A stretch of DNA of 54,201 nt from an uncultured Staphylococcaceae bacterium (GCA_964433025.1 CAYSPV010000004.1:8458-62658), one strand, 5' to 3'; positions 21,441 to 39,633 are shown, numbered from the stretch's first letter. The notes: a model not told the origin generated them from the letters alone. Numbers and translations: made by a program.

Positions 21441-21465
21441 TAAAAAAAATATTAAATAACTATCT

Positions 21466-21497: not shown

Positions 21498-21546
21498 ATA
21501 GAATATTAAATCAATTTTTATATAATTTATAAAAGAGGTAAAAATT

Positions 21547-21774: not shown

Positions 21775-21863
21775 CTTTTAATAAAATTTAGACTATTTTA
21801 ATTAAAAAAACTTGCTTTTAACATTATGTATATGTTAATATTCATTTTGCGTTAAAAACGCCC

Positions 21864-21939: not shown

Positions 21940-21947
21940 GTAAATAT

Positions 21948-22024
21948 GGCCCGTTGGAGAAGTGGCTTAACTCACATGCCTTTCACGCATGCACTCATGG
22001 GTTCGAATCCCGTACGGGTCACCA
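21948..22024 (+). tRNA. tRNA-Glu (anticodon UUC)
   Basis: GGCCCGTTGGAGAAGTGGCTTAACTCACATGCCTTTCACGCATGCACTCATGGGTTCGAATCCCGTACGGGTCACCA. Anticodon loop CTTTCAC. CCA is encoded. Confidence 0.92.
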
Positions 22025-22102
22025 ACTTAGATAATATGTCTGGACACTATGTGAACAGACTTTTTTTGTCTTTAATGTGTAAATTTAATCCCATGTTTAT
22101 TA

Positions 22103-22144
22103 AATTCGGGGGAATTCGGGGGAATTCGGGGGAATTCGGGGGGG
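22103..22144 (+). repeat. Tandem decamer (AATTCGGGGG)x4 plus GG; four G5-G7 runs separated by 5-nt loops (G-quadruplex consensus)
   Basis: Read directly: aattcggggg aattcggggg aattcggggg aattcggggg gg. It also creates three tandem GAATTC sites. Confidence 0.95.
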
Positions 22145-22257
22145 ATTTATAAAGTGAACAAAAAATTTAAAATGTGTACGCTGGGCGTAGATAATTTTGA
22201 AAATATAACAATGTAAAAAATACGACTCCGCCTAGGATTTACATGCAAATTTCGACC

Positions 22258-22287
22258 TTGACAAAATAAAACGGGGGGGGTTATGAT
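22258..22287 (+). promoter_or_regulatory. Sigma-70-type promoter TTGACA-N18-TATGAT with a G8 homopolymer inside the spacer
   Basis: ttgaca (22258-22263), an 18-nt spacer containing g22273-g22280, then tatgat (22282-22287). AGGAGG at 22294-22299 and ATG at 22307 follow. Confidence 0.55.
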
Positions 22288-22306
22288 TTTCCTAGGAGGA
22301 AAAAAT

Positions 22307-22543
22307 ATGGTAATGAGTGATGAAGAAATTTTAGTCAAATATTTTGGTGGTAGACCACAGTGGAACGGAAATAAATTGTCCAGAATTGGTACTGCAAGTG
22401 TTCAATATTCGGGAAATCGTATTTATAAAGTTGGCAGTGCTAGAATTGAATATTCTGGTAACAAACTTTATAAAGTTGATGGAGAAAGAGTTTTGTGGTC
22501 TGGTAATAAAGTTTCTAAAATTGGTTCAGTAAGAATTTCATAG
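22307..22543 (+). CDS. Small cytoplasmic protein built from 15-residue tandem repeats (x-[WY]-[SN]-G-N-[KR]-[LIV]-x-[KR]-[IV]-[GD])
   Basis: 78 aa from the RBS-supported ATG at 22307. The track start at 22283 lies inside the -10 box. Repeats: RPQWNGNKLSRIGTA / SVQYSGNRIYKVGSA / RIEYSGNKLYKVDGE / RVLWSGNKVSKIGSV. Confidence 0.65.
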   Translation: MVMSDEEILVKYFGGRPQWNGNKLSRIGTASVQYSGNRIYKVGSARIEYSGNKLYKVDGERVLWSGNKVSKIGSVRIS

Positions 22544-22634
22544 TGTAAAAAATATAAAGAAGTGTTTATACATAAATAAAATTATTTTTTGGTGGAAAGA
22601 CAAATAGATTAAAAGATAAGGATAATATATAGCA

Positions 22635-23537
22635 ATGAATAAACTAGAATACGTAGCAAGATCACTAAGTAGAGGAACAAAAAAAGTTTATGAAACTTAT
22701 GTAATTAATGCTATTTATCAAAAGATCAATAATCCTAATTTAGAGATTGAAACTCAAAAAGGAATAAATCTTGAAAATGGTTATTGCCCTTTAATCGATC
22801 TTTATTTACCTCAATTGAAAATCGCAATTGAAGTTGATGAAGGTTATCACGCTAATGAAGGACAATCTGAGCATGATATTTGGCGAGAAAAATCTATAAA
22901 TAATCAGATTCAAAAATCTTGTGTTATTGATAATATTCAATTTGAAAGAATAGCAGCTTATGATGTTTCTTTAGAAGAATTAAATAAGAGAATAGATGAA
23001 GTAGTTTCTCTTATTCAAAAAAAGATAGAAGAAAGAGTCAATCCATTAGAATGGAAAGATCAACAGGAAAAAATTGAAGAAATTAAAACAAGAGGTTATA
23101 TCGAAGCAGATGATTGTTTTGATACAAATGTACAAATAATAAATATTGTATATGGAAGAAATTTAAGAGGATTTCAGAGGGCATCCTATAAATTATTATG
23201 GTTTCCAGTAATATCCTATGAAGATGAAGAAAAGCAATTATCAAGTAGAGCAACATGGCAAAATATCTTTAATGATACACATACTATAATTTATGAACGT
23301 TCAATAGATGAAAGAATAAATTCAAACAAACAAGAAGGATGTCTTAAGAGACAAAAAGAAGGTAATAAGCGCGTCGTATTTGTACGAGATAGGGATACGT
23401 TTGGAAAAACACGAAAAAGATTTGTAGGTGTTTTTGAAGCAGGCGGATGGGACGATAATAAAAAAGCCGAAATCTGGAAGTGTGTACTTACTAAAATTAA
23501 AATTCCTATAGATGAAGACACTATATGGAAATTATAA
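22635..23537 (+). CDS. PvuRts1I/AbaSI-family-like modification-dependent (type IV) restriction endonuclease
   Basis: 300 aa. The N-terminal Vsr-like PD-(D/E)xK core IDLYLPQLKIAIEVDEGYH is preceded by YVARSLSRGTKKVYETYVINAI. The C-terminal RVVFVRDRDTFGKTRKRFVGVFE segment matches my recollection of the PvuRts1I layout (~293 aa). No search was run. Confidence 0.62.
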   Translation: MNKLEYVARSLSRGTKKVYETYVINAIYQKINNPNLEIETQKGINLENGYCPLIDLYLPQLKIAIEVDEGYHANEGQSEHDIWREKSINNQIQKSCVIDNIQFERIAAYDVSLEELNKRIDEVVSLIQKKIEERVNPLEWKDQQEKIEEIKTRGYIEADDCFDTNVQIINIVYGRNLRGFQRASYKLLWFPVISYEDEEKQLSSRATWQNIFNDTHTIIYERSIDERINSNKQEGCLKRQKEGNKRVVFVRDRDTFGKTRKRFVGVFEAGGWDDNKKAEIWKCVLTKIKIPIDEDTIWKL

Positions 23538-23585
23538 GTTAAATAGAAAAATCAGGAATTTAATAGAACAATTTACATATAAAAA

Positions 23586-23690
23586 ATCAAAAAAATATAA
23601 AATGAAATATCAAAAAAAAGTAAAATGATTTATCAAAAAAATATAAAATGAAATATCAAAAAAAAGTAAAATAGATATTGAAATATCACC
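23586..23690 (+). repeat. Iteron-like array: 46-bp unit x2, itself made of ~23-bp sub-repeats ATCAAAAAAA(T/AG)TAAAATGA(A/T)(A/T)T
   Basis: 23586-23626 and 23632-23672 are essentially identical. Four successive ATCAAAAAAA-initiated units fall at a spacing of about 23 bp, upstream of the ATPase gene. Confidence 0.85.
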
Positions 23691-23721
23691 AGCATCGTAT
23701 ATAATTTTATTAGGAAAAAAT

Positions 23722-25011
23722 ATGATGAAAAAAGGTTATTTTAATAGAATTGCAGATAAGATTTTAGAATCAAAACTTAAAACTTTTGGCGCTGCAAACA
23801 TTGTTGGACCTAAGTGGTGTGGTAAATCTACAACTGCTTTACAACAAGCAAAAAGTTCTATATTGTTACAAAAATCTATAGAAATAGAAAATTTATTATA
23901 TTCAGGTAGAATTGAACCTTATCTTTTATTAGAGGGTGAAAAACCTAGACTAATAGATGAATGGCAAGACGCTCCTTTTATATGGGACGCTGTTAGATCT
24001 TATTGTGATGAAAATAGTGGTCGAGGTCATTTTATATTAACTGGATCTTCTTCTAAATTTGTAACTACTAAACATACTGGTACAGGTCGTATATCTACTA
24101 TGAAGATGTATCCGATGAGTTTATATGAATCAAAAGAATCAAATGGCACTGTTTCTTTAATGAAGTTATTTGATAAAAAAGAAGATTTAAAAAATGGATG
24201 TATTTCTAATTTAAAAAGAAAAGACATTATACACGCTGCTTGTCGTGGTGGATGGCCTGCTAGTGTTTTATTAAAAGATAAAAAAGCTCAATTAGCCATT
24301 GCTAAAGATTATTTTAATCAGATTTATGAAAAAGATATGTTTAGTGTTGATGATGTTAAACGTAATCAAGAAACCATGAAAGCAATATTAAGAAGTTATG
24401 CTAGAAATATATCTACATTAGCTAAAAAGAAAACTATTTTAGAAGATGTAAGTGCTACAAATCCTATAACACAAGCTACGCTTGATAATTATATAGAAAT
24501 ATTAGAAAGACTATATATAGTGGAAGATATTCATGGGTGGTCACCACAGATTAGATCAAAAACCGCGATAAGAAATGGAAGAAAAAGAGAATTTGTAGAT
24601 CCTTCAATTGCAGTCGCGGCTTTAGGTGGTTCACCAAAAATCTATTCAAAAGATTTTAAGAGCTTTGGTTTTATATTTGAAACCCTTTGTATTAGAGATT
24701 TAAGAGTGTATTCATCTGCTTTTAATGGTCATATTTCTTATTATCATGATAATTTAGATCTAGAAGCTGATTGTGTTTTAAGTTTGGACGATGGTAGATA
24801 TGCAGTTATTGAATTTAAATTTGGTGATTTTGAAGTTGATAAAGGTGCTGAAAACCTAAATAAATTAGAATCTTTAATAGATAAATTTAATCAAACTCAT
24901 AACGCTAAAATACGTATGCCTGATTTAAAAATTGTAATAACCGCAGGTGAATATGGATATAAGCGTGATGATGGTGTGTTTGTTATACCTATTGGATGTT
25001 TAAAAGATTAA
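23722..25011 (+). CDS. AAA_14-type ATPase with a C-terminal DUF4143 (PD-(D/E)xK-like) domain
   Basis: Walker A GPKWCGKST, Walker B-like LIDEWQDAP...FILTGSS, and C-terminal GFIFETLCIRDL...DLEADCVL...AVIEFKFG. Confidence 0.85.
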   Translation: MMKKGYFNRIADKILESKLKTFGAANIVGPKWCGKSTTALQQAKSSILLQKSIEIENLLYSGRIEPYLLLEGEKPRLIDEWQDAPFIWDAVRSYCDENSGRGHFILTGSSSKFVTTKHTGTGRISTMKMYPMSLYESKESNGTVSLMKLFDKKEDLKNGCISNLKRKDIIHAACRGGWPASVLLKDKKAQLAIAKDYFNQIYEKDMFSVDDVKRNQETMKAILRSYARNISTLAKKKTILEDVSATNPITQATLDNYIEILERLYIVEDIHGWSPQIRSKTAIRNGRKREFVDPSIAVAALGGSPKIYSKDFKSFGFIFETLCIRDLRVYSSAFNGHISYYHDNLDLEADCVLSLDDGRYAVIEFKFGDFEVDKGAENLNKLESLIDKFNQTHNAKIRMPDLKIVITAGEYGYKRDDGVFVIPIGCLKD

Positions 25012-25039
25012 TTAGTAAATATTTTAATTTAAGGTGATT

Positions 25040-25139
25040 CGACCAAAATAATGCATATGCGACCAAAAAAGTATAATAAATGGTCGTAAAGTATAAATAG
25101 CATATTGTTTTTCTACCAAAAATATGTAATAATTGGTCG
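25040..25139 (+). promoter_or_regulatory. Repeated CGACCAAAA / TGGTCG motifs bracketing -10-like boxes upstream of fic (candidate operators)
   Basis: cgaccaaaa at 25040 and 25060. Inverted tggtcg at about 25081 and 25134. ctaccaaaa at 25113. GACCA-N16-TGGTC spans TATAAT (25072-25077). Confidence 0.35.
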
Positions 25140-25153
25140 AAAGAAGTGAAACC

Positions 25154-26200
25154 ATGAAAACATTTGATTATGAAAAATATATGAAAATGAAGTGGGATAC
25201 TGAGATTTTATCCTATGTTTCTAAAATTCGTGAATATAAAGGTAAACACGAATCGTTTTTCAATATAAATTCTATTGTTTTAGATAGGACAATACAGATC
25301 GCTAAAATGCAAAGTGTTGAATCTTCAAATAAAATTGAGGGGATAGTTATAACAGATAAAAGAATTAAAGACTTATGTTTGAAAAATTCTAAACCAATAT
25401 CTATAAATGAAAAAGAAATAAAAGGATATAAAGATGCTTTAGATTTTATAGATGAAAACTATGATTTAATGCCACTTACTCCTAATTATATATTGCAACT
25501 TCACAAGATGATTTTTGAGGATACTGGTTCCACTATAGGTGGTAAATTTAAAAATGTTCAAAACTATATAAATGAAATACATCAAGATGGAACATCAATA
25601 ACTTTATTTGTTCCCTTATCACCATATTTAACACCAGATGCAGTGGATACAATATGTCAACAATACAATCAAGAAATTGATAAAGGTATATTAGACCCTC
25701 TTATTTTAATTGCGGTATTTATTATTGATTTTTTATGTATCCACCCATTTAATGATGGTAATGGAAGAATAAGTCGATTATTAACTACGTTATTACTATA
25801 TAAATCAAGATATTTTGTTGGTCGATACATTAGTATTGAAAAAAGTATAGAAAAATCAAAAGAAGGATATTATGATGCATTATATCAATCATCACAAGGA
25901 TGGCACGAAAATAGTAATGATCCATTACCATTTATTAAATATTTATTAGGTGTAATTATTGGTTGTTATCGTGAGCTAGATGAAAGAATTGAAATATTAA
26001 AGACTAAAGGTAATGCGCTTGATATAGTAAGAAAAGCAATAGAGAATCGTTATGGTAAGTTAACTAGAAAGGACATTTTAGAACTTTGTCCAACACTAGA
26101 ACGGTCATCAGTTGGCGATGCCTTAAAAAAATTAGTGGACGAAGGAACACTCAAACGTGGTGGTTCAGGCAAAAATACCTATTACTATAGGACAAAATAA
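25154..26200 (+). CDS. fic: Fic-family protein (class II: N-terminal inhibitory motif, Fic core, C-terminal wHTH)
   Basis: Fic motif HPFNDGNGRISR. An N-terminal SxxxEG element (SSNKIEGI) matches the [ST]xxxE[GN] autoinhibition motif. The C-terminal LKKLVDEGTLKRGGSGKNTYY is wHTH-like. The ATG at 25154 is preferred over the non-ATG track start at 25133. Confidence 0.9.
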   Translation: MKTFDYEKYMKMKWDTEILSYVSKIREYKGKHESFFNINSIVLDRTIQIAKMQSVESSNKIEGIVITDKRIKDLCLKNSKPISINEKEIKGYKDALDFIDENYDLMPLTPNYILQLHKMIFEDTGSTIGGKFKNVQNYINEIHQDGTSITLFVPLSPYLTPDAVDTICQQYNQEIDKGILDPLILIAVFIIDFLCIHPFNDGNGRISRLLTTLLLYKSRYFVGRYISIEKSIEKSKEGYYDALYQSSQGWHENSNDPLPFIKYLLGVIIGCYRELDERIEILKTKGNALDIVRKAIENRYGKLTRKDILELCPTLERSSVGDALKKLVDEGTLKRGGSGKNTYYYRTK

Positions 26201-26347
26201 CCAATAATATACTTTGGAACTGAATAATTACATATTTTTTGATATTTTTAGATTAGCGGTAATCCTACAATTATCTTTCAAAAACTCAAAAAAATTTTCA
26301 TTTTTTGAAAGAAAATATGTATTATATAAGTGTAAAGAGGTAAAGAT

Positions 26348-27568
26348 ATGTTATTAGAACGTGACCGTTATTTAAATAAAATTCGTCCATTTTATGATTT
26401 AGATATTATTAAAGTACTAATTGGTTCAAGAAGATCAGGAAAATCTAAAATTATTGAATTAATAATAAAAGATTTAAAACAAAGAGGTGTTAAAGATTCT
26501 AATATTATTTATATAAATTTTGAAAATCTTGATTATTCAGAGCTCACTGATTATAAATCCTTAAATAATTTTATTAAAAATAAAGTCGTGGATTCTAAAA
26601 TGTATTTATTTTTTGATGAAATTCAAGAAGTAAAACAATTTGAAAAAGCTATAAACTCTTTTAGAGTTTCTTTTGATTGTTCTATTTTTATAACAGGCTC
26701 AAATTCTAAAATGTTATCAAGTGAAATATCTAGTGTATTAACAGGAAGAATTATTGAATTTGTTATTTATCCTTTTTCTTTTTTAGAAAGTCAAAATTAT
26801 CGAAAAATGGCAAATACAGAAATAGAAGATGCTTTTTATGATTATCTAGAATTAGGGGGCTATCCTTTAAGATTTGATCTAATGGATAAAGAGTCTACAA
26901 AAGCCTATTTAAATGAGTTATATGATAATATCTGTGTTAAAGATATATTTACTAGAGACATAGAAATTGAAAAAGCTAAATTTTTAAATATTGCTAAATA
27001 TATATTAGTGAACGCTGGTAATGATTTTAATCCAGAAGCTATATATAACTATTTAAAAAGCAATAACAATGGTAAAGAATATTGCTCTATAAAAACTATA
27101 TATAATTACCTAGATAAATTAGAAAAAGCTTTTTTAATAAAACCTATATATAGATACAACATAAGTGGTAAAAAAGTCTTAGCCACAAATCCTAAATATT
27201 ATGCAATTGATAATGGATTAAGAATTATAAATGCTGATTCTAATTTATATGATAGAGGTAAATTTTTAGAAAATGTTATTTGTATAGAGTTACTATCTAG
27301 AGGATATGAAGTATATGTAGGTAAAACATATAAAGGAGAAGTAGACTTCGTGGCATCTAAAAACAATAAAAAATGTTTTATTCAAGTAGCGTATATTATG
27401 GAAAGTCAAGCTACGATAGATAGAGAATTTGGAGCCTTTTCTTGTATAAAAGATCCTTCACCTAAATATGTCTTTAGTCTAGATAAAATAGATATGTCTA
27501 GAAATGGCTATACACATATAAATATCATCGATTTCTTATTAGAAAAGGTTGATATATATTTAACATAA
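26348..27568 (+). CDS. AAA_14-type ATPase with a C-terminal DUF4143 domain (second, divergent copy)
   Basis: Walker A GSRRSGKSK, LFFDEIQEV...FITGSNS, and C-terminal GKFLENVICIELL...GEVDFVA...FIQVAY. Confidence 0.85.
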   Translation: MLLERDRYLNKIRPFYDLDIIKVLIGSRRSGKSKIIELIIKDLKQRGVKDSNIIYINFENLDYSELTDYKSLNNFIKNKVVDSKMYLFFDEIQEVKQFEKAINSFRVSFDCSIFITGSNSKMLSSEISSVLTGRIIEFVIYPFSFLESQNYRKMANTEIEDAFYDYLELGGYPLRFDLMDKESTKAYLNELYDNICVKDIFTRDIEIEKAKFLNIAKYILVNAGNDFNPEAIYNYLKSNNNGKEYCSIKTIYNYLDKLEKAFLIKPIYRYNISGKKVLATNPKYYAIDNGLRIINADSNLYDRGKFLENVICIELLSRGYEVYVGKTYKGEVDFVASKNNKKCFIQVAYIMESQATIDREFGAFSCIKDPSPKYVFSLDKIDMSRNGYTHINIIDFLLEKVDIYLT

Positions 27569-27640
27569 TCAGTAATAATTGGACTTAAATCGTTAGTAAA
27601 AACACTTTTTAATCCTTAAACTATATAAAAAGTTTGTTAC

Positions 27641-27670
27641 AGACTAAAAAATTTTTTAGTCTTTTATTTT
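27641..27670 (+). terminator. Rho-independent terminator (22-bp perfect palindrome + T run)
   Basis: agactaaaaaa|ttttttagtct followed by tttatttt. Confidence 0.65.
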
Positions 27671-27727
27671 CTTTCTTTGAAATGTATAATCTAAACTTAT
27701 TCAATAAACTAACAAAGGAGGAAAAAG

Positions 27728-30700
27728 ATGAAAAAACTTCTCTACTTGCTCCCTATTGTATTTCTATTTACATTAGGAGCGTGTGACATTACTGATATAA
27801 CATCAGAAGTCACATCTACATCTGATGTTGATTCCACATCAACAACAATAATAACTACAACAACATCTGAAGAAGATCCTACCACTACGACGTCTACAAC
27901 AACTACGACGACAACGACTAGTGAACCTGATCCTGATCCAGATCCTGACCCAGACCCAGATCCCGATCCAGATCCCGATCCTGATCCAGACCCAGATCCA
28001 GAACCAGATCCCGATCCAGATCCCGATCCTGAACCAGATCCTGAACCAGATCCCGATCCAGATCCAACTCCTGAACCAGTAGTAAGTCATACTCACGGGG
28101 ATGATTCAATAGAATGGACTGTTGTTTCAGATGACAGTGCTACTTTAAGTGATGGATATTATTTCTTAGATGAAGATGTTAATTCAGAATCTAATATTTC
28201 TATTTCAGGTACTGTTACTTTATGTTTAAACGGTAATGTATTAACTGGTAATGGACAAGGCTCCGTTATTACAGTTGCAGCAGGTAATTCATTAACTATT
28301 TGTGACTGTCAAGAAGGTGCTGAAAACATTGCTAATGAAGTAAATGGTACAACCTATAACAGTGGTGTAATTACTGGTGGATACACTACTAGAGGTGGCG
28401 GTCTTTATGTAAGCGGTACTGTTGTTTTAGAATCTGGTACCATCGCTGGTAATGAAGCTTATGAAAACAGCAGTTCTGATGGTAACGGCGGTGCTGTTTA
28501 TATTTATGGTACCTCTGCATCATTTACTATGAACGGCGGTGCTATTAGTGATAATACAACTCCTGATTATGGCGGTGGTATATATGTTGAACGGGGAACA
28601 TTCACCATAAATGATGGAGAAATATCTTATAATAGTTCTGATTATCAAGGTGGTGGAATATACAATTTCTATGCTACAGTTAATGTCAATGGTGGAGCTA
28701 TTTATAACAACACCGCAACTTATTACGGCGGCGGTATTTATGCTTCAAGTGCCACAATTAATATGACTGGTGGTGAAATTACAGAAAATAGCGTCCTCAT
28801 TAGTGGTGGTGGTATTGAACTTGATATGTATGCTTATTTATACATGAGTGGCGGTACTATTGCTTATAACACTGGTGAAGCTATTGATGCATATGATAGC
28901 AACTATTTCTCCATGACAGGTGGATATATTGAAGGTACTTTTTACAATACAAATTCTTGGAGTACATTCTCAATTGCTGGTGGATATTTTGCAAATAATG
29001 CTTATAATTCACTTAGCCTCAGTTATATAAGAAGCGGTTATATTGCTGTAGACCTCACTGATGGTGAAGGATATGGCGATACTGACTATGATAGTAATTT
29101 CCCAATTGCGGTATATAGTCAAGTAGTCACTACTATTGATAGTAATGTTACTGTTTCATGTGGTGACGCTGATGATTACACTATTGTGGATTCTAATGAT
29201 GTTACTTATCAATATGCTACAGTTGGTTCTGATATTTATACAGATGGCTTACCATCTGAAGCAGGTACATATACTGTTATAGCTACATTTACTACCACAA
29301 TTGATGGTGCTAATAAAACCGTCTATGGTGGTCCAGTTACATTTACATTAACAATTAATGATCATACATTTGATGAAGGAACATGCACTGTATGTGGTGA
29401 AGCTGATCCTTCTTATGTAGCAGAAGATGTAGTAACAGACACTATAACCGCTGAAGGTTTAGGTTTATCTGATACTTCAAATTATACCGATGTTACATAC
29501 ACTGGTGATGAAAGTGGTATTTCATATGTTGGTAATGCAAGATACGACGATGATCCAGTAGGATTTAGAATTCATGCTACTCGTACAAATTCTGGTATTG
29601 CTACACAAAATACTAGTACTTCAACAGTTAATAGTATTACTTTAAATTTCAATTCAAATAATACAAGTAGTAGCTACTATGTTGTTATTTATGCTAGTAA
29701 CAGCACTTATACGAATGCTGGAACCGCGAATGATGATGAAGTTGCTTCTGATAATATTTATATTCCAGTAAGAAATACTGATTCTACATATACCTATACA
29801 TTTACAGATAGCTATACTAATTTCCGTATTGTAAGTGGTAATGGTCAAATTGAATTTTCTTCTATAGTGGTTTCTTGGACCTTAGGAGATGATACATCTT
29901 CTAGTGACCCAGAGCCAGCAACACAAGAAATCAGTGATACATTTAGTGTTTATGATATTTATGGTGATTTCTCAGATTTAACAGGCACAAGTGGTGCAGT
30001 TTATGCTGGTTCTGTTATTGAAGACTTCACTTATGAATGTATTAGACTAGAAGAAGGTTCCAGTTATATCATTTCTACTAGTTCTCCAGGTACTATTAAG
30101 AGTGTTACAATAGATGCCTATGATTTTGATTATGGTGATTATGGTTGGTGCGATATTTATATTTATGCATCAAACGATCCATTCACAAGCTCTAGTGATT
30201 TAACTAGAAGTGCTTATATAACCTCTATAGATCTAACCGAAGGTGGTACTTTAACATATACATTTACTAGTGAATATTCATATGTAGGTATTGCCTGTGA
30301 AGATACCATTGATGGTGTTGGATACATTAATAGTGTTACTTTCACTTGGAACGTTGGTTCTTCTAGTGACTCAGAACCAGAACCAGAACCTGTAATACAA
30401 GATGTCAGTGATACATTTAGTGTTTATGATATTTATGGTGATTTCTCAGATTTAACAGGCACAAGTGGTGCAGTTTATGCTGGTTCTGTTATTGAAGACT
30501 TCACTTATGAATGTATTAGACTAGAAGAAGGTTCCAGTTATATCATTTCTACTAGTTCTCCAGGTACTATTAAGAGTGTTACAATAGATGCCTATGATTT
30601 TGATTATGGTGATTATGGTTGGTGCGATATTTATATTTATGCATCAAACGATCCATTCACAAGCTCTAGTGATTTAACTAGAAGTGCTTATATAACCTCT

Positions 30701-30838: not shown

Positions 30839-30868
30839 AATAATAATCACTAATTAATTTATTTATTA

Positions 30869-30895
30869 ACTCTCAACGCAAAGTTGGGAGTTTTT
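30869..30895 (+). terminator. Rho-independent terminator
   Basis: ctctcaac-gcaaa-gttgggag stem followed by ttttt. Confidence 0.7.
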
Positions 30896-31087
30896 AAATT
30901 GGAGTAAAAAACTTATAATAGTCAAATTTTGTACATGTTTGACTTTGACTCACTAACATTTATATTAAATCTACAAAAAATAGTGTAGATATGCTAAAAT
31001 TATGACGATTTTAAATAAATATCAACGAAAATAGAGATATGTAGATTTTTAACAAAAATAGGATAAAAAGCAAAAGAGGATTCTAAG

Positions 31088-33172
31088 ATGAAAAAAGACA
31101 TAAATGTACTTTGGGATGATAATCCAATTGATATAACTAGTGAAGCTAATTTTATATGGTCTATCGCAAATAAATTGCGTGGATCATATATGCCAGATAA
31201 ATATGGCGATGTTATTATTCCCATGACTATTTTAAGAAGATTTGAATGTGTTTTAGCAAAAACAAAAAAAGAAGTAGTGGAAAAATTTAAAGAAGATCCT
31301 AATGTTGCCCCTCGGATTTTGGAAAGATTAAGTGGTTATCAATTTTACAACGTTAGTAAGTTTGATTTAGCAGAACTTTGTAATGATGAAGAAGCTAATT
31401 TAGCGGATGACTTTAAAGTATATAAAAATTGTTTTTCTTCTAATATTCAAGAAATTTTAAATGAGTTAGAGCTTGATAAACATATAGAAAAAATGGATAA
31501 AGACAATTGTTTATTATCTATAATCAAAGCCTTTTCTGAATTAGATTTAAGTGTAGAGAAATTTGATAGTATTAAGATGGGCTATATTTTTGAAAATCTA
31601 GTTGGTAGATTTTATCAAAATGTTGAAGCTGGACAATATTATACTGGTAGAGACATTATCAAATTGATGGTATCTATTCTTATTTCTGAAGGTTGTGATG
31701 ATATTTTTGATGAAAATAAAGTAATTACTGTTTGTGACCAAGCCTGTGGTACTGGTGGTATGCTTACAACTGCCTATAATTATCTTAAGTACTACAACCC
31801 AACCTGCGATGTTAGATTATTTGGTCAAGAATTTATGGGTCAAACTTACGCTATTGGATTAGCTGAAATGTTAATTAAAGGACAAGATGCTAGAAACTTT
31901 AAACACGCTGATACATTTAAGGAAGATTGTTTTAAAAATCAAAAAATGCGTTTTGTTATAGAAAATCCTCCATTTGGTACACCTTGGAGTGGAAGTGATG
32001 CGAAAGCTGGACAAGAGCAAGCTGTAAGAGAAGAACATGCTAAAGGACTTTCTGGACGTTGGGGTGCAGGTCTTCCAGGTGGTGGAGATTCACAGATGAT
32101 TTTCTTACAATCTGCTATTGATAAGATGGATGAAGAATATGGTAGAGCTGCTATTATTGAAAATGGATCACCTCTTTTTAAAGGTGATACCGGTTCAGGC
32201 GAATCTCAAATTAGAAGATGGATACTAGAAAATGATTTATTAGAAGCAATCATTGCTCTTCCAACTGAACTTTTTTATAACACTGGAATAGCGACTTATA
32301 TTTGGATCCTTTCAAAAAATAAGCGCAAGGAAAGAAGAGGTAAAGTTCAATTAATTGATGCTTCAAATATTTATCATAAATTAAGAAAAGCAGTTGGTGA
32401 GAAAAAGAATGAATTTACGCCTGAAGATAGAGAAAAAATAACAAAGATATATAGTAATTTTGTAGAAACTGAAGAGTGTAAGATTTTTGATAATGAAGAT
32501 TTTCTTTATAAAGAATATTCTATATATCAACCTTTACAAAAATCATATGAAATAACATATGAAAGAATTGAAGAAATGATACAAAAAGGTTCATTATCTA
32601 GTTTTTATGATGAAAACAAAGTTTTTGAATTAGAAAATAGTGATTCTCAACTCGATGATAAAAAACAAAAACAACTTCAAAAATACAAAGATAATGAAGA
32701 TTCATATAATCAAATCATTAACATATTAAAAGAAAATGTTAGTGATAAAAAATACATGGATTCTAAAGAATTTACAAATATAATTCATGATTATCTAAAA
32801 GATTTTGAAAATAAAATTGTAGACAAAGTAGTGGATGGACTAGGTAAGATGGATAAAGAAGCACCCATCAGTAGAGATAAACATGGCAATATCATTTATG
32901 ATAAAGACACTAAAGATATCGAAATAGTGCCTTATAAACAAACAATAGAAGAATATATGAATAAAGAAGTTTTACCCTATATTCCTGATGCAGAAGCTTT
33001 TTTCGAAGAAAAGATTGACACTAAAAAACCTATAATAAAAACAGGTGCAGAAATACCTTTTACTAGAATATTCTATAAATATAAAAAACAAGAGAGTTCA
33101 GATAAATTATTAGAAGACTTTATTGAAATCGATAAGAAGGTAAATGAAAAAATTAAAAAGCTGGTTAAATAA
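31088..33172 (+). CDS. hsdM: Type I restriction-modification system, DNA methyltransferase subunit (long form, 694 aa)
   Basis: AdoMet motif DQACGTGGML, catalytic NPPFG, and the N-terminal HsdM_N-like region (IWSIANKLRGSY). Confidence 0.92.
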   Translation: MKKDINVLWDDNPIDITSEANFIWSIANKLRGSYMPDKYGDVIIPMTILRRFECVLAKTKKEVVEKFKEDPNVAPRILERLSGYQFYNVSKFDLAELCNDEEANLADDFKVYKNCFSSNIQEILNELELDKHIEKMDKDNCLLSIIKAFSELDLSVEKFDSIKMGYIFENLVGRFYQNVEAGQYYTGRDIIKLMVSILISEGCDDIFDENKVITVCDQACGTGGMLTTAYNYLKYYNPTCDVRLFGQEFMGQTYAIGLAEMLIKGQDARNFKHADTFKEDCFKNQKMRFVIENPPFGTPWSGSDAKAGQEQAVREEHAKGLSGRWGAGLPGGGDSQMIFLQSAIDKMDEEYGRAAIIENGSPLFKGDTGSGESQIRRWILENDLLEAIIALPTELFYNTGIATYIWILSKNKRKERRGKVQLIDASNIYHKLRKAVGEKKNEFTPEDREKITKIYSNFVETEECKIFDNEDFLYKEYSIYQPLQKSYEITYERIEEMIQKGSLSSFYDENKVFELENSDSQLDDKKQKQLQKYKDNEDSYNQIINILKENVSDKKYMDSKEFTNIIHDYLKDFENKIVDKVVDGLGKMDKEAPISRDKHGNIIYDKDTKDIEIVPYKQTIEEYMNKEVLPYIPDAEAFFEEKIDTKKPIIKTGAEIPFTRIFYKYKKQESSDKLLEDFIEIDKKVNEKIKKLVK

Positions 33173-33174
33173 TT

Positions 33175-34335
33175 ATGTCAAAGTCTAAAATTAAAAAATA
33201 TACTGGTATTATGCCAGAACATTGGGACGAAAAAAAAGTTGGAGCTGTTTATAAAGAAAGAAATACCAAGGTCAGCGACAAATATTTTCAACCTCTTTCA
33301 GTAACAAAAAATGGCATTGTACCTCAATTAGAAAGTGCCGCAAAGACAAATGATGGGGATAATAGAAAACTTGTCAGAAAAGATGATTTTGTTATTAATA
33401 GTAGGTCAGATCGCCGTGGTTCATGCGGTATTTCAAACTATGATGGATCTGTTTCACTTATTAATATTGTGCTTGAACCACTACAAAGTGAAGCATTTTG
33501 TAACGATTATTATGATTGGTTCTTTCATACAGAAAATTTTGCTGATGAATTTTATAGATATGGATATGGAATAGTTAATGATTTGTGGACAACTAGATGG
33601 ATGGATTTTAAAAACATTATAATCCCTTATCCCCCTCTCGCCGAACAGAAAAAAATCGCCGACTTTTTGGACGACAAGTGCGCACAAATCGATGAAATTG
33701 TGAGTGATTTAGAAGAAAAAGTTAACAAATTAGATGAGTATAAGAAAAAATTGATAGAAGAAGTAGCTATTTATGGCACTATGTGTGATTCGAAGGAATA
33801 TACGAAATTAAAATATATTGCTTCTTCATTCTCTAAAACCTTATCCCTTACTTTTTTAAATGAAGATTATGAATATTTGGTGTATGGTGCAGGTGGTTTA
33901 TTAAACATGAAATCCCGTTTTTACGAATGCTCTGTACCATATATTGGGATTGTTAAAGATGGTGCAGGCATAGGGAATTGCTATGTATGTGAGAAACAAA
34001 CATCCCTTTTAGGAACAATGGCATATATTGTTCCAAATAAAGATACAGATCTAAAATTTTTATTTTATACATTAATTGGTTTAAATCTTTCTCAACAGAC
34101 TGGTGATAATACAACTATTCCACACATTTATTTTTCAGACTATGGTAATAGTAGTGTTTTAAATTTGCCTCTCGTCGAACAGAAAAAAATCGCCGACTTT
34201 TTGGACGACAAGTGCGCACAAATCGATGAAATTGTGAGTGATACTAAAAAACAAATCGAAGTTTTAAAAGAATATAAGCAATCCTTAATTTATGAATATG
34301 TAACAGGTAAAAAGGAGGTTTTAATTAATGAATAG
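33175..34335 (+). CDS. hsdS: Type I R-M specificity subunit with two target-recognition domains
   Basis: 386 aa between hsdM and hsdR. It has a duplicated conserved coiled-coil segment PL(A/V)EQKKIADFLDDKCAQIDEIVSD after each variable domain. Confidence 0.88.
   Translation: MSKSKIKKYTGIMPEHWDEKKVGAVYKERNTKVSDKYFQPLSVTKNGIVPQLESAAKTNDGDNRKLVRKDDFVINSRSDRRGSCGISNYDGSVSLINIVLEPLQSEAFCNDYYDWFFHTENFADEFYRYGYGIVNDLWTTRWMDFKNIIIPYPPLAEQKKIADFLDDKCAQIDEIVSDLEEKVNKLDEYKKKLIEEVAIYGTMCDSKEYTKLKYIASSFSKTLSLTFLNEDYEYLVYGAGGLLNMKSRFYECSVPYIGIVKDGAGIGNCYVCEKQTSLLGTMAYIVPNKDTDLKFLFYTLIGLNLSQQTGDNTTIPHIYFSDYGNSSVLNLPLVEQKKIADFLDDKCAQIDEIVSDTKKQIEVLKEYKQSLIYEYVTGKKEVLINE
33634..33708 (+). repeat. 75-bp direct repeat, copy 1 (hsdS central conserved region)
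   Basis: Identical to 34168-34242 except for one base (gcc vs gtc). About 45% G+C by my count, against a much more AT-rich context. Confidence 0.95.
34168..34242 (+). repeat. 75-bp direct repeat, copy 2 (hsdS distal conserved region)
   Basis: In frame, exactly 534 bp (178 codons) downstream of copy 1. Confidence 0.95.
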
Positions 34336-37300
34336 AATTCAAACAGAAACTGAATATGAGACATTTATTGTTAAATATTTAAAAGAAAATAATGGTTATA
34401 TAGAAAGAACTAATGCTAATTACGATAGAAATTATGCAATGGATAAAGAACTTTTAATCAAGTTTTTAAATGATACTCAACCTGATACAGTTGCTAAGTT
34501 AAAAAGACTATATGGAAATCAATATGAAGAAACAATTGTTAATTACATAAATAATCGTATAACGGATAAAAATAATAGTTTAATAAATGTTTTAAAAAAT
34601 GGTGTTGAATTAAACGGTCAGAAAATCAAATTAATGTATAATCAAGTCGCCACTGATTATAATCCTGAACTTACAAGAAAATATCAACAAAATATTTTTT
34701 CAGTGGCTAGACAAGTTTGGATAAACGATACTCAAAGAATTGATTTAGTCATATTCTTAAATGGCATAGCAATTATCGCAATAGAACTTAAATGCAATTT
34801 TAGTGGTCAAAGTTATGAAGACGCTATTTATCAATTTAGAAATGAAAGAGATTATAAAAATAGAATTTTTAAATTTAAACAAGGTGTTTTAGTAAATTTT
34901 GCTATGGATTTAAACGAAGTTTATATGTGTACTAAATTAAATGGTGCTTCTAGTTATTTCTTACCATTTAATATGGGAAACGGAAAAGGAATTGATACAG
35001 GAAAAGGAAACCCTAATTATAAAGATAAATATGGTGTTTATTATATGTGGGCCGATATATTAAAAAAAGATACCTTAATTGAATTAATATCTAAATATAT
35101 TTTTATCGAAAAAAGAGAAAATAAAGATATAGAAACTGGAAGAAGTAAAATTAAAGAGACATTAATTTTCCCTAGATATCACCAGTTAGATTGTTTAAGA
35201 AAAATAATAGAAGATGTAAAAATAAATAAAACATCACAAAACTATTTAATTCAACATAGTGCAGGTTCTGGTAAGACTAATACAATATCGTGGTTATCGC
35301 ATAGACTTGCTTCTCTTCATGATGATGACAACAATCAAATATTTAATAACATAGTGGTGGTTACCGACAGAAAAGTAGTAGATAGACAACTTCAAAAGGC
35401 TATAACTGATATTGACCATATGGCAGGAAAAGTTGCTGTTATAGGCGATAATAAAACATCAGAAGATCTAAAAAGAGCACTTGAAGGTAATACTAAAATC
35501 GTAGTCACTACAATCCAAAAGTTTCCTTATATACTTAAGACAGTAGAAGGACTAAATAATAAAAATTTTGCAGTAATAATTGATGAAGCTCACTCTTCAA
35601 CATCTGGAAAGGATATGGCTGCGGTTAACAAAGCATTAGGATCGGATGTTGATTATGAAGACGATGCATTTAATATGGATTATGAAGATGTGATTGTAGA
35701 TGAAATATCTAAATCTGGTAAACGACCAAATGTATCTGTTTTTGCTTTTACCGCTACACCAAAGCCAACTACATTGCAATTATTTGGAAGGGTAAACACT
35801 AGAGGTCAACGCGAAGCCTTCCATTTATATTCTATGAAACAAGCAATAGAAGAAGGCTTTATTTTAGATGTGCTTCAAAATTACACTACATACGAAACTT
35901 TTTATAAAATAAATAAAGAAATTGAAGCTGATCCAAAATTTAAAAGCAATGCTGCTAAAAGAAAAATTGCTCGTTTTGTAGCCCTACATGAAACTAATAT
36001 TTTCCAAAGAGTAGAAATTATAATTGAACATTTTAGGGCTAATATTATGCAAGAGCTTGGAGGACAAGCTAAAGCTATGGTTATTACCTCTTCTAGAGCA
36101 GAAGCTGTCAAATACTCAAAAGCATTTAATAAGTATGTTGAGGAGAAAGGATATAATGATATCCATTCACTTGTAGCCTTCTCTGGCAAAGTAAGTAGCA
36201 GTAGTGTTGGCGAGGGCGAAGATGGACATGAATATAGCGAAACCTCGATGAATGGATTTAATGAAGTAAATACGGCTAGAAAATTTGATGAAGGCGATTA
36301 CCAAGTTTTAATTGTTGCTAACAAATATCAAACTGGTTTTGATCAACCCAAACTCTGTGCAATGTATGTATTAAAAAGACTTAATGGAGTTAATGCGGTT
36401 CAAACTCTTTCTAGACTTAATAGAACCTATCCTCCTTATGATAAAAAAGTTTTTATTTTAGATTTTGCTAATTCTTATGAAGAAATTGAAAGGTCTTTTA
36501 AACCTTATTACACTGCAACAATATTAACTAATTCTGTAAATCCTCAACTCATTTATGAATTAGACGCTAAAGTTAATGAATATTATTTGATTGATTTTGA
36601 TGATATTGATAGTTTTAATAATCATCTATATAACAAACCAATCACTGATGAGGATACAAAAAGACTTAATTATTATCTAAATAAAGCTAAAAAAACATTT
36701 GATTCTATTAGTGATACAAAAACACAAAAAGAGATTTATTTACTTCTTAGAAGATTTATAAGATTTTATGAATTTTTAATTCAAGTATCTTCTTTTGAAG
36801 ATATTGAGATTCATAAAAAATATAATTTCTATTCTTATCTTGTTTCATTTTTACAAGTGAATCAAAGTGGTGGAGGATTTAGTTTAAAAGACAAAATCAA
36901 TGCTTCAAACTTTGTTCAAAAAAAGAAAGAGACAGTTATTAATCCCACGATTCACGCTAATCCAGCTGTTAAACTTCCTACTGCGGAAACATTCCTTTTA
37001 ACCGAAGATAAAGAAAAAAGACTTTCTGAAATTATTGCTGAAATTAATGCTAGAACTGGATACAGTTTTAATAATGATGATGCTGTAAGAGCTATGCTTG
37101 ACATTACAGACGAAATGAAAAAAGATGATGAATTAAGAACCAGTGCTAAAAATAATTCCATTAAAGATTTTGAATTTCCATTCTATGACAAAGCAGAAAG
37201 CGCACTTATTGATGGTTATAATCAAAGGAAAGAATTTGTTAAGAAACTCTTAGAAAATAAAGAAACATTACATGAATTATTAGGTATTTTCCTTCCTGAG

Positions 37301-37345
37301 ATTTATAAGAGTTTAAGAGAAGACGACAAAGAGGACAAGAAATAA
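34328..37345 (+). CDS. hsdR: Type I R-M restriction (helicase-nuclease) subunit
   Basis: 1005 aa. N-terminal PD-(D/E)xK region (DLVIFLNGIAIIAIELK), helicase motif I QHSAGSGKT, motif II IIDEAHSS. The start overlaps the hsdS stop. Confidence 0.92.
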   Translation: MNRIQTETEYETFIVKYLKENNGYIERTNANYDRNYAMDKELLIKFLNDTQPDTVAKLKRLYGNQYEETIVNYINNRITDKNNSLINVLKNGVELNGQKIKLMYNQVATDYNPELTRKYQQNIFSVARQVWINDTQRIDLVIFLNGIAIIAIELKCNFSGQSYEDAIYQFRNERDYKNRIFKFKQGVLVNFAMDLNEVYMCTKLNGASSYFLPFNMGNGKGIDTGKGNPNYKDKYGVYYMWADILKKDTLIELISKYIFIEKRENKDIETGRSKIKETLIFPRYHQLDCLRKIIEDVKINKTSQNYLIQHSAGSGKTNTISWLSHRLASLHDDDNNQIFNNIVVVTDRKVVDRQLQKAITDIDHMAGKVAVIGDNKTSEDLKRALEGNTKIVVTTIQKFPYILKTVEGLNNKNFAVIIDEAHSSTSGKDMAAVNKALGSDVDYEDDAFNMDYEDVIVDEISKSGKRPNVSVFAFTATPKPTTLQLFGRVNTRGQREAFHLYSMKQAIEEGFILDVLQNYTTYETFYKINKEIEADPKFKSNAAKRKIARFVALHETNIFQRVEIIIEHFRANIMQELGGQAKAMVITSSRAEAVKYSKAFNKYVEEKGYNDIHSLVAFSGKVSSSSVGEGEDGHEYSETSMNGFNEVNTARKFDEGDYQVLIVANKYQTGFDQPKLCAMYVLKRLNGVNAVQTLSRLNRTYPPYDKKVFILDFANSYEEIERSFKPYYTATILTNSVNPQLIYELDAKVNEYYLIDFDDIDSFNNHLYNKPITDEDTKRLNYYLNKAKKTFDSISDTKTQKEIYLLLRRFIRFYEFLIQVSSFEDIEIHKKYNFYSYLVSFLQVNQSGGGFSLKDKINASNFVQKKKETVINPTIHANPAVKLPTAETFLLTEDKEKRLSEIIAEINARTGYSFNNDDAVRAMLDITDEMKKDDELRTSAKNNSIKDFEFPFYDKAESALIDGYNQRKEFVKKLLENKETLHELLGIFLPEIYKSLREDDKEDKK

Positions 37346-37360
37346 TTAGGAGGCAAAACT

Positions 37361-37543
37361 ATGAAATGGGAATATAAAACTGTTAATATTAACGTTCATT
37401 TTAAAACGGGTAGTGGAGCTGAAAAAGCTATTCAAGACCAATGTTCAATTTTAGGTGAATTAGGTTGGGAACTTGTTAATTTCCAATGTTATGATATGTC
37501 AACAAAATTCATCTTAGTTTTTAAAAGACCAATGAAAGAATAA
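37361..37543 (+). CDS. DUF4177-like small protein
   Basis: 60 aa. MKWEYKTV... and ...LGELGWELVNF... match the DUF4177 pattern as I remember it. AGGAGG RBS, 15 nt after hsdR. Confidence 0.6.
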   Translation: MKWEYKTVNINVHFKTGSGAEKAIQDQCSILGELGWELVNFQCYDMSTKFILVFKRPMKE

Positions 37544-37747
37544 TTCCTTATTATTTTAGTAATAAATGTAAATAGCATATAAAAAATACAAAATTGATTT
37601 CTTTTTAAATCTAAAATTATTCAGTTCTGTTCTATTAATCGTTATAACAGCGTAAATTAATTAATATATAAAAATATTTTTTATGCATTTTTATTGCATG
37701 AAAAATTAATTTATGTAATACTAATATCAGAAGTGGAGGATTATGAA

Positions 37748-39016
37748 ATGATACTAGCTATACGCGCAAACAACTATTTGGTTTATTCTGATCAAGTTGA
37801 ATTATCTTTAAAAGCTAATTTAAAGATTAAACGTTTACAATCAAATACTATTCCAGTTGGAAATATTAGTGTTTTAAAATCTGGTGCGATTTATGGTCCA
37901 AATAATGTTGGAAAGACATGTTTAGTACGCGCAATTAGATCTATTAAAAATGTTTTATTGAGTAGAGATGCTGAGGTACCTGTTAATTGGTATATCAATA
38001 ATCCAACATGTTATTTAGGAATAACATTTACAGATAAAAATAAGATTTATAGTTATGATGTTGGTTTTACAACAAGAAATAATAAAAATAATATAGTTGG
38101 TTTTACTTATGAGAGATTTGCTGAGATTTTAATTGATTCTTATGGAAATAAAACTGAAAAAATACTATTTTTAAAAGATATTTTTAAAAAGAAGTTTAGA
38201 TGTCCTGGGTATGAAGAAATTGAAGAATTAATGCGTTCCATAGCCATAAATAATATTTTAATTTATACGATTAATACTGAGAAATTTGAAATATTAGGGG
38301 CATACAAAGACATATTTTTAAAATGCGCTAATAGCATTGAAATTGTCGAGCTTTATAACATTCCAATCGATAAAACTATCCAATTACTCAAGGATAAAAA
38401 GGCTGATAAAGAAAAAATTGTCGAATTAATAAAAAAGGCTGATATAGACATAGATGACTTTGAATATGTCAAACCAAATATAAGAAATTTTCCTATTCTA
38501 CAGCCGAATATGAATGTACCTAACGAAAACACTTTTTATAATCAAATTTCACAACTTGATATTTACTATTTAATGTCTACTCATCGTGGTATAAAAGTTC
38601 CCAGTTTATTATTTGATTCTACAGGTACTAAAAAAGTTGTTGCCCTAGCAAGTTATATTATAGAAGCTCTAGAAGAAGGAAAAACCTTAGTAGTGGATGA
38701 GCTTGATAGCAGTCTACATTTTAAACTTACCCGTGCAATAGTATCATTATTTAACAATATAAAAAATACAAAAGGTCAACTAATATTCACTGTTCAAGAT
38801 ATTACTTTACTAGATTGCAAAACACTCTTTAGAAAAGATCAAATTTGGTTTGCTTCAAAAGAAGATGATAAAGTTCGTCTATATTCTCTTGATGATTACA
38901 CAGCCGAAGAAGGCGTAAGAGCAGAGAGCGATCTTACGGAACAATATAAAAAGGGAATGTTTGGAGCTATACCCGAACCTGATTTAATAAGTGTTTTAAT
39001 TGGAGGAGAAGGCTAG
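37748..39016 (+). CDS. AAA_21/ABC-type ATPase (AbiLi / RloA-like)
   Basis: GGAGG 8 nt upstream of the ATG at 37748. Walker A GPNNVGKT, Walker B LVVDELDSSLH, and a Q-loop/signature-poor SMC-like layout. Confidence 0.8.
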   Translation: MILAIRANNYLVYSDQVELSLKANLKIKRLQSNTIPVGNISVLKSGAIYGPNNVGKTCLVRAIRSIKNVLLSRDAEVPVNWYINNPTCYLGITFTDKNKIYSYDVGFTTRNNKNNIVGFTYERFAEILIDSYGNKTEKILFLKDIFKKKFRCPGYEEIEELMRSIAINNILIYTINTEKFEILGAYKDIFLKCANSIEIVELYNIPIDKTIQLLKDKKADKEKIVELIKKADIDIDDFEYVKPNIRNFPILQPNMNVPNENTFYNQISQLDIYYLMSTHRGIKVPSLLFDSTGTKKVVALASYIIEALEEGKTLVVDELDSSLHFKLTRAIVSLFNNIKNTKGQLIFTVQDITLLDCKTLFRKDQIWFASKEDDKVRLYSLDDYTAEEGVRAESDLTEQYKKGMFGAIPEPDLISVLIGGEG

Positions 39017-39633
39017 TGATTAAAACAAAATACAATATTTGTATTATATGTGAAGGTGAAGAGGAATTTGATTATCTTAACCAATTAAAATCGTTCAATG
39101 TCTGGTCTAATATATATTCCATTAAATTTAGGAAAGCATTGTCTATTGATAATATTGCCATTATCTATCAATATGTATACTCAAACTATAATTATGATTT
39201 GGTATTAGTTTTTTGTGATACGGAAGTAGAACCATATGGCCAATATAAGAAAATGAAGGAAAACATTTCAAGTATATATGGAAATAAAAACGCTGTAGAT
39301 CATGTTGTTTTCTTTGCAAATCCTAACTCAATGCAAATAATTTTATCTCATTTTGATTCTATAAAATTACAAAGTAATGATAAAAGCAAAAACAGTTTTA
39401 TAATAGAAAAACTAACTGGCGTAGAAGATTATAGAGCTACTGAAAAACAACGCACTTCTATTATGAGAAAAATTAATGCCGATAATTATGAAATTCTTAA
39501 GACCAATTTAGCTAAATTAGGAACTAATGACACTACTACTGGAAGTACAAATTTTTTAACATTGTTACAATATTTAGAATCTGATGATCCAACATGGATA
39601 GAAGATATTATTCATATACTAGAAGAAGATTAA
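39016..39633 (+). CDS. RloB-like (TOPRIM-like) protein, partner of the upstream ATPase
   Basis: The GTG start overlaps the upstream TAG by 1 nt, with GGAGGAGAAGG upstream. N-terminal ICIICEGEEEFDYL resembles the RloB CEGxxTExxYF motif. There is a later acidic VFCDTE. Confidence 0.65.
   Translation: MIKTKYNICIICEGEEEFDYLNQLKSFNVWSNIYSIKFRKALSIDNIAIIYQYVYSNYNYDLVLVFCDTEVEPYGQYKKMKENISSIYGNKNAVDHVVFFANPNSMQIILSHFDSIKLQSNDKSKNSFIIEKLTGVEDYRATEKQRTSIMRKINADNYEILKTNLAKLGTNDTTTGSTNFLTLLQYLESDDPTWIEDIIHILEED

Follow-up and report, generated by a model that had tools for sequence, protein, structure and literature searches.

How does a dense run of immunity-type genes come to lie directly behind a tRNA gene, when nothing in it resembles an integrase? 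The question is raised by the block 22025-39633 of a stretch of 54,201 nucleotides (nt) from an uncultured low-GC Bacilli genome (G+C ~28%); below, the window denotes this whole stretch, to which all coordinates refer. An earlier note on this DNA had described a switch to immunity-type genes at the 3' end of tRNA-Glu, a description that holds, with nearly every gene label upheld by Pfam, PADLOC or NCBIfam, and had regarded the block as a decayed or non-canonically mobilised island. Our analysis suggests that a conserved defence hot spot with core genes on either side exists here, and that the block, in which several predicted anti-phage modules are stacked independently of one another, is probably what occupies it at present. 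In a sister species, the existence of the slot is established, as are the flanks, the variability and the enrichment in defence genes.

The variable slot behind tRNA-Glu

The slot is framed on the left by a Tad-like pilus operon, an acyl carrier protein (ACP) gene, tRNA-Asn and tRNA-Glu, and on the right by a GT2 glycosyltransferase gene, followed by ABC transporter genes, a gene for a protein of 399 amino acids (aa) and those of an M29 peptidase, serine hydroxymethyltransferase (SHMT) and enolase. An Rfam scan of the window returned four tRNAs and nothing else. The following elements delimit the slot:

21864-21939, plus strand: tRNA-Asn (GTT), by ARAGORN and Rfam; in the conserved left flank and kept in the related genomes L004 and L005
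21948-22024, plus strand: tRNA-Glu (TTC), by ARAGORN and Rfam; the variable segment begins at its 3' end
22038-22067, plus strand: hairpin followed by seven T, terminator-like for the tRNA pair by fold prediction
39669-41570, plus strand: 5'-nucleotidase lipoprotein gene, without synteny in any relative
41567-42283, minus strand: gene for a 238-aa protein, likewise without synteny in any relative
42454-43764, plus strand: GT2 glycosyltransferase, first gene of the right flank, by collinear tblastx of window 42454-51714 with L006 4168-13842

The ATPase of the pilus operon (18548-19543) retrieved two uncultured Bacilli genomes, L004 and L005, from a species-representative collection, and in tblastx the window was collinear with both, gene for gene, from 12092 to 22024, through ACP and both tRNAs, with nothing matching past tRNA-Glu. 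A homologue of the ACP (P0242, 76% identity) was present on at least 24 contigs, and these contigs and L004 represent one species, as judged from 93-98% nucleotide identity in the left flank (blastn). Our comparison covers 11 loci of one sister species, at ~60-76% amino-acid identity to the window. Across these loci, similarity to the reference locus L009 stops 0-2 nt past the 3' end of tRNA-Glu, and within 13 nt of it in one case. On the right, the match to L006 begins exactly at the start codon of GT2. A homologue of the M29 peptidase (P0128) shares a 722-kb ENA scaffold (scaffold_0) with locus L011; on the ENA scaffold tRNA-Glu ends at ~216,900 and similarity between strains resumes at ~194,900, ~22 kb apart. 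The interval from the end of tRNA-Glu to the right backbone measures 0.49 kb in L009 and ~4.5-4.8 kb in L008 and L010.

Between the flanks, the 11 sister-species loci hold at least seven different contents of 0.5 to ~22 kb, three of them with PADLOC matches:

L004: helix-turn-helix (HTH) gene, two type II methyltransferases and a Hachiman HamB helicase (1e-262)
L005 and L011-L013: PDC-S31 (DUF2971), PDC-S57/S14, AbiJ (Abi_C) and a 1509-aa AAA_11/AAA_12 helicase
L008 and L010: PDC-S01 ATPase, then a GGACT protein
L014: Big_2 surface protein, two serine recombinases, a tyrosine integrase and a Bro/ANT protein
L015: 190-aa protein, rve transposase and TrkA genes
L016: polysaccharide-synthesis cluster
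L009: almost empty, with a 75-aa open reading frame (ORF) that is the remnant of a 464-aa gene complete in other strains

The remnant kept in L009 identifies this locus as a deletion variant that arose through illegitimate loss, not a virgin site. Recombinase or transposase genes occur at the slot in L014 and L015 only. Furthermore, two flank haplogroups lie 3-7% apart over the last 3.5 kb and the class D island is present on both, while the flanks bearing islands of classes B, C and D diverge by just 0-0.9%, with no difference at all over the last 1.5 kb between L008 (class C) and L013 (class B); farther left in the flank, the haplotype grouping shifts again. Island class is thus uncoupled from flank haplotype, the mark of a fixed slot in which cassettes turn over fast and around which recombination is mosaic. 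The hairpin behind tRNA-Glu is equally island-specific, with five hairpin-plus-T-run sequences among the sister-species classes and a sixth kind in the window. None of the island genes of the window recurs at the slot in the relatives except for a distant PDC-S01 homologue, which opens the slot after the same tRNA-Glu in L008 and L010 and is ~40-60% identical, in tblastx segments, to the first of two DUF4143 ATPases of the block.

The slot hence displays several features of a defence hot spot, namely core genes on both sides, defence enrichment, and no single class of mobile element that accounts for it. We propose that cassettes would be gained, lost and swapped via homologous recombination in the conserved flanks following DNA uptake or transduction, that illegitimate deletion would also remove slot content, and that recombinase-bearing elements may occasionally insert. 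With cassettes exchanged through the flanks, the block in this genome would need no integrase of its own. The proposal of accessory DNA at a tRNA site, made in the earlier note, is consequently backed by cross-species evidence: the homologous slot is strain-variable and defence-rich, and the block is not syntenic in the sister species.

At the right edge, the last defence gene ends at 39633, 35 nt before the 5'-nucleotidase gene, and no terminator was found between the two. Housekeeping genes had been said to resume at 39669, with the distal boundary at 39633. The former is correct from 42454, where the conserved backbone begins, whereas the nucleotidase and the 238-aa gene, neither of which has a defence-model match in PADLOC, are non-syntenic, the sister species carrying GT4, a 174-aa gene and a Big_2 gene at their position. 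This places 39669-42283 inside the inter-species variable segment, and a boundary at 39633 is not established. The 5'-nucleotidase was also considered as right anchor and dropped, as its closest homologues (63-72% identity) reside in three unrelated contexts in three other metagenome-assembled genomes (MAGs); the M29 peptidase and ACP were used in its place. In one of these contexts, in a related MAG (L001 3524-5691), a nucleotidase homologue of 63% identity lies directly 3' of tRNA-Asp/tRNA-Phe in an otherwise unrelated neighbourhood, indicating that this gene also moves between tRNA-adjacent positions.

A few further observations concern the surroundings of the slot. An invariant block of ~85 nt is found at four otherwise divergent sister-species junctions (L008 10580-10655, L010 10500-10575, L014 ~7630-7705 and L017 10580-10655). 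It reads AAAATAGT..AAAAGTTCGAACCACCGCAATACGCACACCGCAATAGCAC..CGGGTTCGAACATT, with two GTTCGAAC palindromes around a CACCGCAATA direct repeat and divergence right after. This class-C junction block, which was not found in the window, may represent a recombination site or a small RNA. In L006 of the sister species, another Fic and HTH gene (20939-21230) lies ~7 kb downstream of enolase beside several unannotated ORFs, an area that may be a second variable region. In the left flank of the window, the Tad/Com-like pilus operon extends over 16842-21440 and comprises, next to the T2SSE-family ATPase, membrane proteins and small pilin-like proteins (20907-21248 and 21258-21440); as pure speculation, the operon could feed recombination at the adjoining slot, if used for DNA uptake. 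Upstream of it, 13087-15054 encodes a 655-aa protein with Glu/Pro/Thr-rich tandem repeats of 12-54 nt and without Pfam match, and its positional counterpart in the sister species encodes 397-605 aa depending on the strain, in some cases as a split gene. A second variable surface-protein locus, of smaller size, seems to be present here.

Mobility signatures and competing readings

The tRNA adjacency, with a junction that coincides with the 3' end of the tRNA, would be expected also of a decayed classical island, i.e. of a prophage, an integrative and conjugative or integrative and mobilizable element (ICE/IME) or a satellite that entered the 3' end of tRNA-Glu by a tyrosine integrase and later lost integrase and distal attachment (att) site, with its defence cargo left stranded. 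Congruent with such an origin, L014 bears serine and tyrosine recombinases and Bro/ANT genes at the same slot, a 69% homologue of the small repeat protein encoded at the proximal edge adjoins terminase/portal genes on a viral contig, and defence hot spots of E. coli are often tRNA loci used by mobile elements (PMC10121019). The block itself, however, lacks the corresponding traces. Among the ORFs of 22025-42453, none has a Pfam or PADLOC match to a family of recombinases or transposases, consistent with what had been stated from the sequence before, and the intergenic gaps of 35-282 nt are too short to hide an integrase remnant, with every ORF otherwise assigned or intact. The last 25 nt of tRNA-Glu, allowing up to three mismatches, occur at one site in the window, the tRNA itself; short blastn at word size 7 of both tRNAs against 22.1-46 kb gave a best match of 9 nt; and a repeat search of the window found no flanking direct-repeat pair. 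The att search by three methods thus revealed nothing above chance, and the earlier statement that no distal copy of the tRNA 3' end was seen withstands all of them.

Moreover, GC, GC3 and codon-usage distance of the island genes overlap those of the backbone genes without anomaly, so that the composition profile, once suggested as a check, does not set the island apart. Megablast of 22025-42453 against plasmid and phage collections returned no match, and neither pseudogenes nor an att scar were seen in the block, the ORFs being intact. The recombinases of L014 do not adjoin the tRNA but are separated from it by ~3 kb or more, and most slot variants are devoid of recombinases. We therefore regard a decayed island as unlikely, the pattern fitting core-flanked cassette turnover.

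Several points weigh against the hot-spot reading as well. The right edge is ambiguous over 2.8 kb, the occupant of the slot being 22025-39633 or, at most, the segment up to 42453, which leaves its extent uncertain. No sequencing run holding the left or the right flank was found, nor any genome of the window's own species, and in ~15 billion sequences eight of ten island proteins, as well as the flank proteins, had no relative of at least 90% identity outside the organism itself; the other two island proteins are not on record with the start codon used here. Accessory status is consequently extrapolated from a relative at ~60-76% protein identity. Recombination through the flanks is what we infer, and a junction exactly at the tRNA 3' end fits integrase-mediated insertion too. 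Lastly, the anti-phage role of the modules is predicted, PDC-S01 being an unvalidated candidate and the AbiLii assignment a weak one.

Given the missing conspecific genomes, which could have displayed polymorphism, the block might also be a stable, vertically inherited part of this species, with the slot variable in the sister species only. Composition and codon use like the backbone, and intact genes co-oriented with their neighbours, are compatible with this. On the other hand, strains of the closest species sampled differ from one another at the homologous position, the genes of the block are of classes known for quick turnover, and the relatives' slot is without the island genes of the window, save the distant PDC-S01 homologue; we accordingly hold a non-accessory block to be quite improbable.

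Predicted defence modules of the block

Returning to the hot-spot occupant, 12 co-oriented ORFs on the plus strand span 22283-39633, directly after tRNA-Glu. PADLOC models match 9 of the 12 genes and assign six defence module types. With the exception of the first gene, which is described further below, the genes are:

22635-23537, plus strand: type IV (modification-dependent) endonuclease, PvuRts1I-like; Pfam, and PADLOC mREase_II at 1e-46 over the full length
23722-25011, plus strand: AAA_14 + DUF4143 ATPase, PDC-S01 subfamily PDLC04790; Pfam, PADLOC 1e-55
25133-26200, plus strand: Fic-domain protein, SoFic-like; Pfam, PADLOC SoFic at 4e-40 over the full length
26348-27568, plus strand: second AAA_14 + DUF4143 ATPase, PDC-S01 subfamily PDLC04787; Pfam, PADLOC 2e-133
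27728-30838, plus strand: 1036-aa lipoprotein, a surface protein; lipobox LGAC, low-complexity Thr/Asp-Pro linker, duplicated C-terminal domain
31088-33172, plus strand: HsdM, methyltransferase of a type I restriction-modification (R-M) system; Pfam N6_Mtase and HsdM_N, PADLOC MTase_I 1.5e-224
33175-34335, plus strand: HsdS, specificity subunit with two target-recognition halves; Pfam, PADLOC
34328-37345, plus strand: HsdR, with HSDR_N nuclease and SWI2/SNF2 motor; Pfam, PADLOC, NCBIfam
37361-37543, plus strand: 60-aa DUF4177 protein, starting 15 nt past hsdR; Pfam, 27 bits (cut-off 25)
37694-39016, plus strand: AAA_21 ABC-type ATPase, AbiLi-like; Pfam, PADLOC AbiLi 1e-65 and AriA 1e-22
39016-39633, plus strand: 205-aa partner of the ATPase, weakly AbiLii/RloB-like; PADLOC AbiLii 2e-6, with part of the model covered

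The type IV candidate has the layout of the PvuRts1I family, an N-terminal nuclease domain (PvuRts1I-like_N, PF21598, residues 4-127, E 2e-23) followed by a C-terminal SRA base-flipping domain (PF18491, residues 150-290, 6e-16), from which its substrate specificity is predicted. PvuRts1I-like type IV enzymes cut DNA with hydroxymethyl- or glucosyl-hydroxymethyl-cytosine. The type I R-M system is complete, with intact hsdM-S-R ORFs that overlap or abut over 31088-37345 and an internal repeat of 129 nt in hsdS, and is predicted to be active. Type I R-M systems cut unmethylated foreign DNA. With one enzyme directed at modified and the other at unmethylated DNA, the two systems would be complementary, as judged from what is known of their families.

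Both DUF4143 ATPases have the domain fusion that defines PDC-S01, AAA_14 joined to the PD-(D/E)XK-like DUF4143. PDC-S01, an ATPase fused to PD-(D/E)XK, is the fourth most common predicted defence in prokaryotes and an experimentally unvalidated candidate (PMC12988326, PMC13356809). Between the type IV gene and the first ATPase lies an A-rich tandem repeat of 23 nt (23582-23672, plus strand; four copies, 83% matches), and a promoter-like site for the ATPase is located just downstream of it, at 23678-23705. The Fic protein bears the motif HPFNDGNGRISR (general form HxFx(D/E)GNGRxxR) as well as an N-terminal SNKIEG inhibitory-helix motif, and its NCBI cluster representative of 348 aa agrees with a start at 25154. 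It scores 48 bits with the NCBIfam SoFic equivalog model, far under the cut-off of 550, and is thus SoFic-like, not an equivalog. That the two ATPases and the Fic protein constitute one three-gene system instead of three single-gene modules, an arrangement hinted at by their adjacency on the same strand ~120-150 nt apart, appears very improbable and was rejected, considering that a DUF4143 ATPase lies within 5 kb of Fic in only 5 of 80 metagenomic loci with a Fic ~50% identical, in varying orientation and distance, that the remaining 75 have no DUF4143 gene nearby, that PDC-S01 occurs without Fic at the same slot in L008 and L010, and that the two ATPases are from different PDC-S01 subfamilies.

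At the far end, the pair previously labelled AAA_21 plus RloB-like is substantiated for the ATPase, given its AbiLi match; the partner has the weak AbiLii match and no Pfam (including RloB), NCBIfam or PDB sequence match, such that the RloB-like label reduces to this match and, by eye, an N-terminal CEGE motif. Since the ATPase is matched by the AriA (PARIS) model too, the subtype assignment is loose. ATG at 37748 may be the true start of the ATPase, the TTG-start version being absent from the protein collection, and the start codon of the partner shares one base with the AbiLi stop codon. A single-sequence AlphaFold2 (AF2) model of the AbiLii-like fold was too poor for use, with a predicted local distance difference test (pLDDT) value of 51.

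Intermixed with the defence modules are the surface lipoprotein and two small proteins. The 1036-aa lipoprotein, which has no defence-model match in PADLOC, carries a 6-nt Asp-Pro repeat in 23 copies (27929-28066) and a 474-nt tandem duplication with 98% identity (29909-30823) in its gene, and both repeats likely vary in copy number between strains. The DUF4177 protein reached 34.5 bits with the NCBIfam Sp36 family, under the cut-off of that model, and had no PADLOC or PHROG match; a defence role is weakly suggested by its position 15 nt after hsdR, the sole support for it.

Taken together, the type IV enzyme, the type I R-M system, the AbiL-like abortive infection pair, the SoFic-like AMPylase and the two PDC-S01 ATPases would provide layered anti-phage roles, as predicted from their families. 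The earlier note had asked whether defence predictors recover more than the type I R-M system, and the PADLOC models clearly do. Its candidates for new immunity functions are weaker than claimed, DUF4143 already being catalogued as PDC-S01, and the DUF4177 and small repeat proteins being without defence-model match.

G-rich edge and relation to known hot spots

Directly behind the tRNA pair, the proximal edge of the block contains:

22103-22144, plus strand: (AATTCGGGGG)x4 running into G7, the four copies at 22103-22142; 4.0 copies in TRF, 100% regular
22258-22287, plus strand: sigma-70-like promoter TTGACA-18-TATGAT, 11 of 12 matches, the best of 21.4-41.4 kb
22307-22543, plus strand: 78-aa small repeat protein, an N-terminal helix and four 15-aa 'RVEYSGxKLYKIG' beta-hairpin repeats

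The decamer repeat, the perfect regularity of which confirms the earlier note, forms a canonical G-quadruplex (G4) motif, G5N5G5N5G5N5G7, and is the sole G5..G5 cluster in the window, where chance would yield 0.01. When run with its gquad option, ViennaRNA predicts that the repeat folds into a quadruplex of five layers; neither strand of the window has another G4 motif, and the repeat was not found in the 17 related loci compared. Additionally, a G8 tract (22273-22280) falls within the 18-nt spacer of the promoter, which lies just upstream of an AGGAGG ribosome-binding site and the ATG at 22307, and every run of at least seven G in the window is contained in 22138-22280.

The small repeat protein, the ORF of which is readable from 22283 as well, is a member of a rare family, for which 1.84 billion sequences yielded 46 representatives at E<1e-3 and in which the N-terminal 'MSDEEILIKYYGG' helix and the four 15-aa repeats are conserved in the alignment; we take it as a real gene. 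One of five AF2 models was confident (pLDDT 90), with a helix plus eight strands. Foldseek of this model gave no match at E<0.1, with a faint likeness to YD/RHS-type sheets at E>1, and no Pfam, NCBIfam, PADLOC or PHROG match was obtained. The 69% homologue mentioned above (IMG/VR, L018) sits between a host-like acyltransferase and the terminase/portal genes, i.e. at a prophage edge. In Neisseria, the pilE-linked G4 acts as a recombination-initiating structure. By analogy, the G4 repeat could start integrase-independent cassette exchange and the G8 promoter tract could phase-vary the small repeat protein by slipped-strand mispairing, an idea that we consider a long shot. A homopolymer in a promoter spacer is a classic arrangement for such phase variation. 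As no terminator was detected between the small repeat protein gene and the type IV gene, expression of the latter might follow any such promoter switch too.

The closest description in the literature is that of the core defence hot spots cDHS1 and cDHS2 of P. aeruginosa, whose core-gene flanks contain tRNA-Pro or tmRNA (Johnson et al. 2023, PMC10250203). The likeness extends to a core-bounded slot with a tRNA/tmRNA flank, a wide size range, diverse defence systems and no single mobile-element class, and the authors suggest lateral transfer via the conserved flanks by transduction and homologous recombination (PMC10250203). In contrast, the locus described here belongs to another phylum, is known from 11 sister-species loci plus the window with the slot variability coming from the sister species, shows no GC deviation and also houses surface-protein genes. 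In the E. coli pan-genome, defence systems likewise cluster in a restricted set of positions, tRNA loci accounting for 18 of them, with content that differs by strain (Hochhauser et al. 2023, PMC10121019); the islands there, in the part of that work drawn on here, are prophages, satellites, ICEs/IMEs or integrase-only, whereas the window and most sister variants are without recombinase. Classical tRNA-integrated islands (Williams 2002, as cited in PMC10121019 and PMC10250203) similarly place accessory cargo immediately 3' of a tRNA gene, and the window differs by having no integrase, tRNA-derived direct repeat or atypical composition. Finally, lactococcal AbiL and other ATPase + RloB/Toprim pairs share with the terminal pair the two-gene operon, the frames overlapping by one base and the AAA_21 Walker motifs; the second gene differs in reaching AbiLii at 2e-6 without a Pfam RloB match.

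The kind of locus is hence well known, and the individual modules are mostly catalogued already. Modest leads are offered by the rare 78-aa repeat protein, the DUF4177 gene close after hsdR and the two G-rich elements. For annotation, the findings carry the warning that a missing integrase alone is no ground for the label of a decayed island. More broadly, they extend the pattern of core defence hot spots, so far known mainly from Proteobacteria, to an uncultured lineage of small-genome, low-GC Bacilli, and the presence of the same tRNA-Glu slot in species that share ~60-76% protein identity makes it worth searching for new defence genes in this clade.

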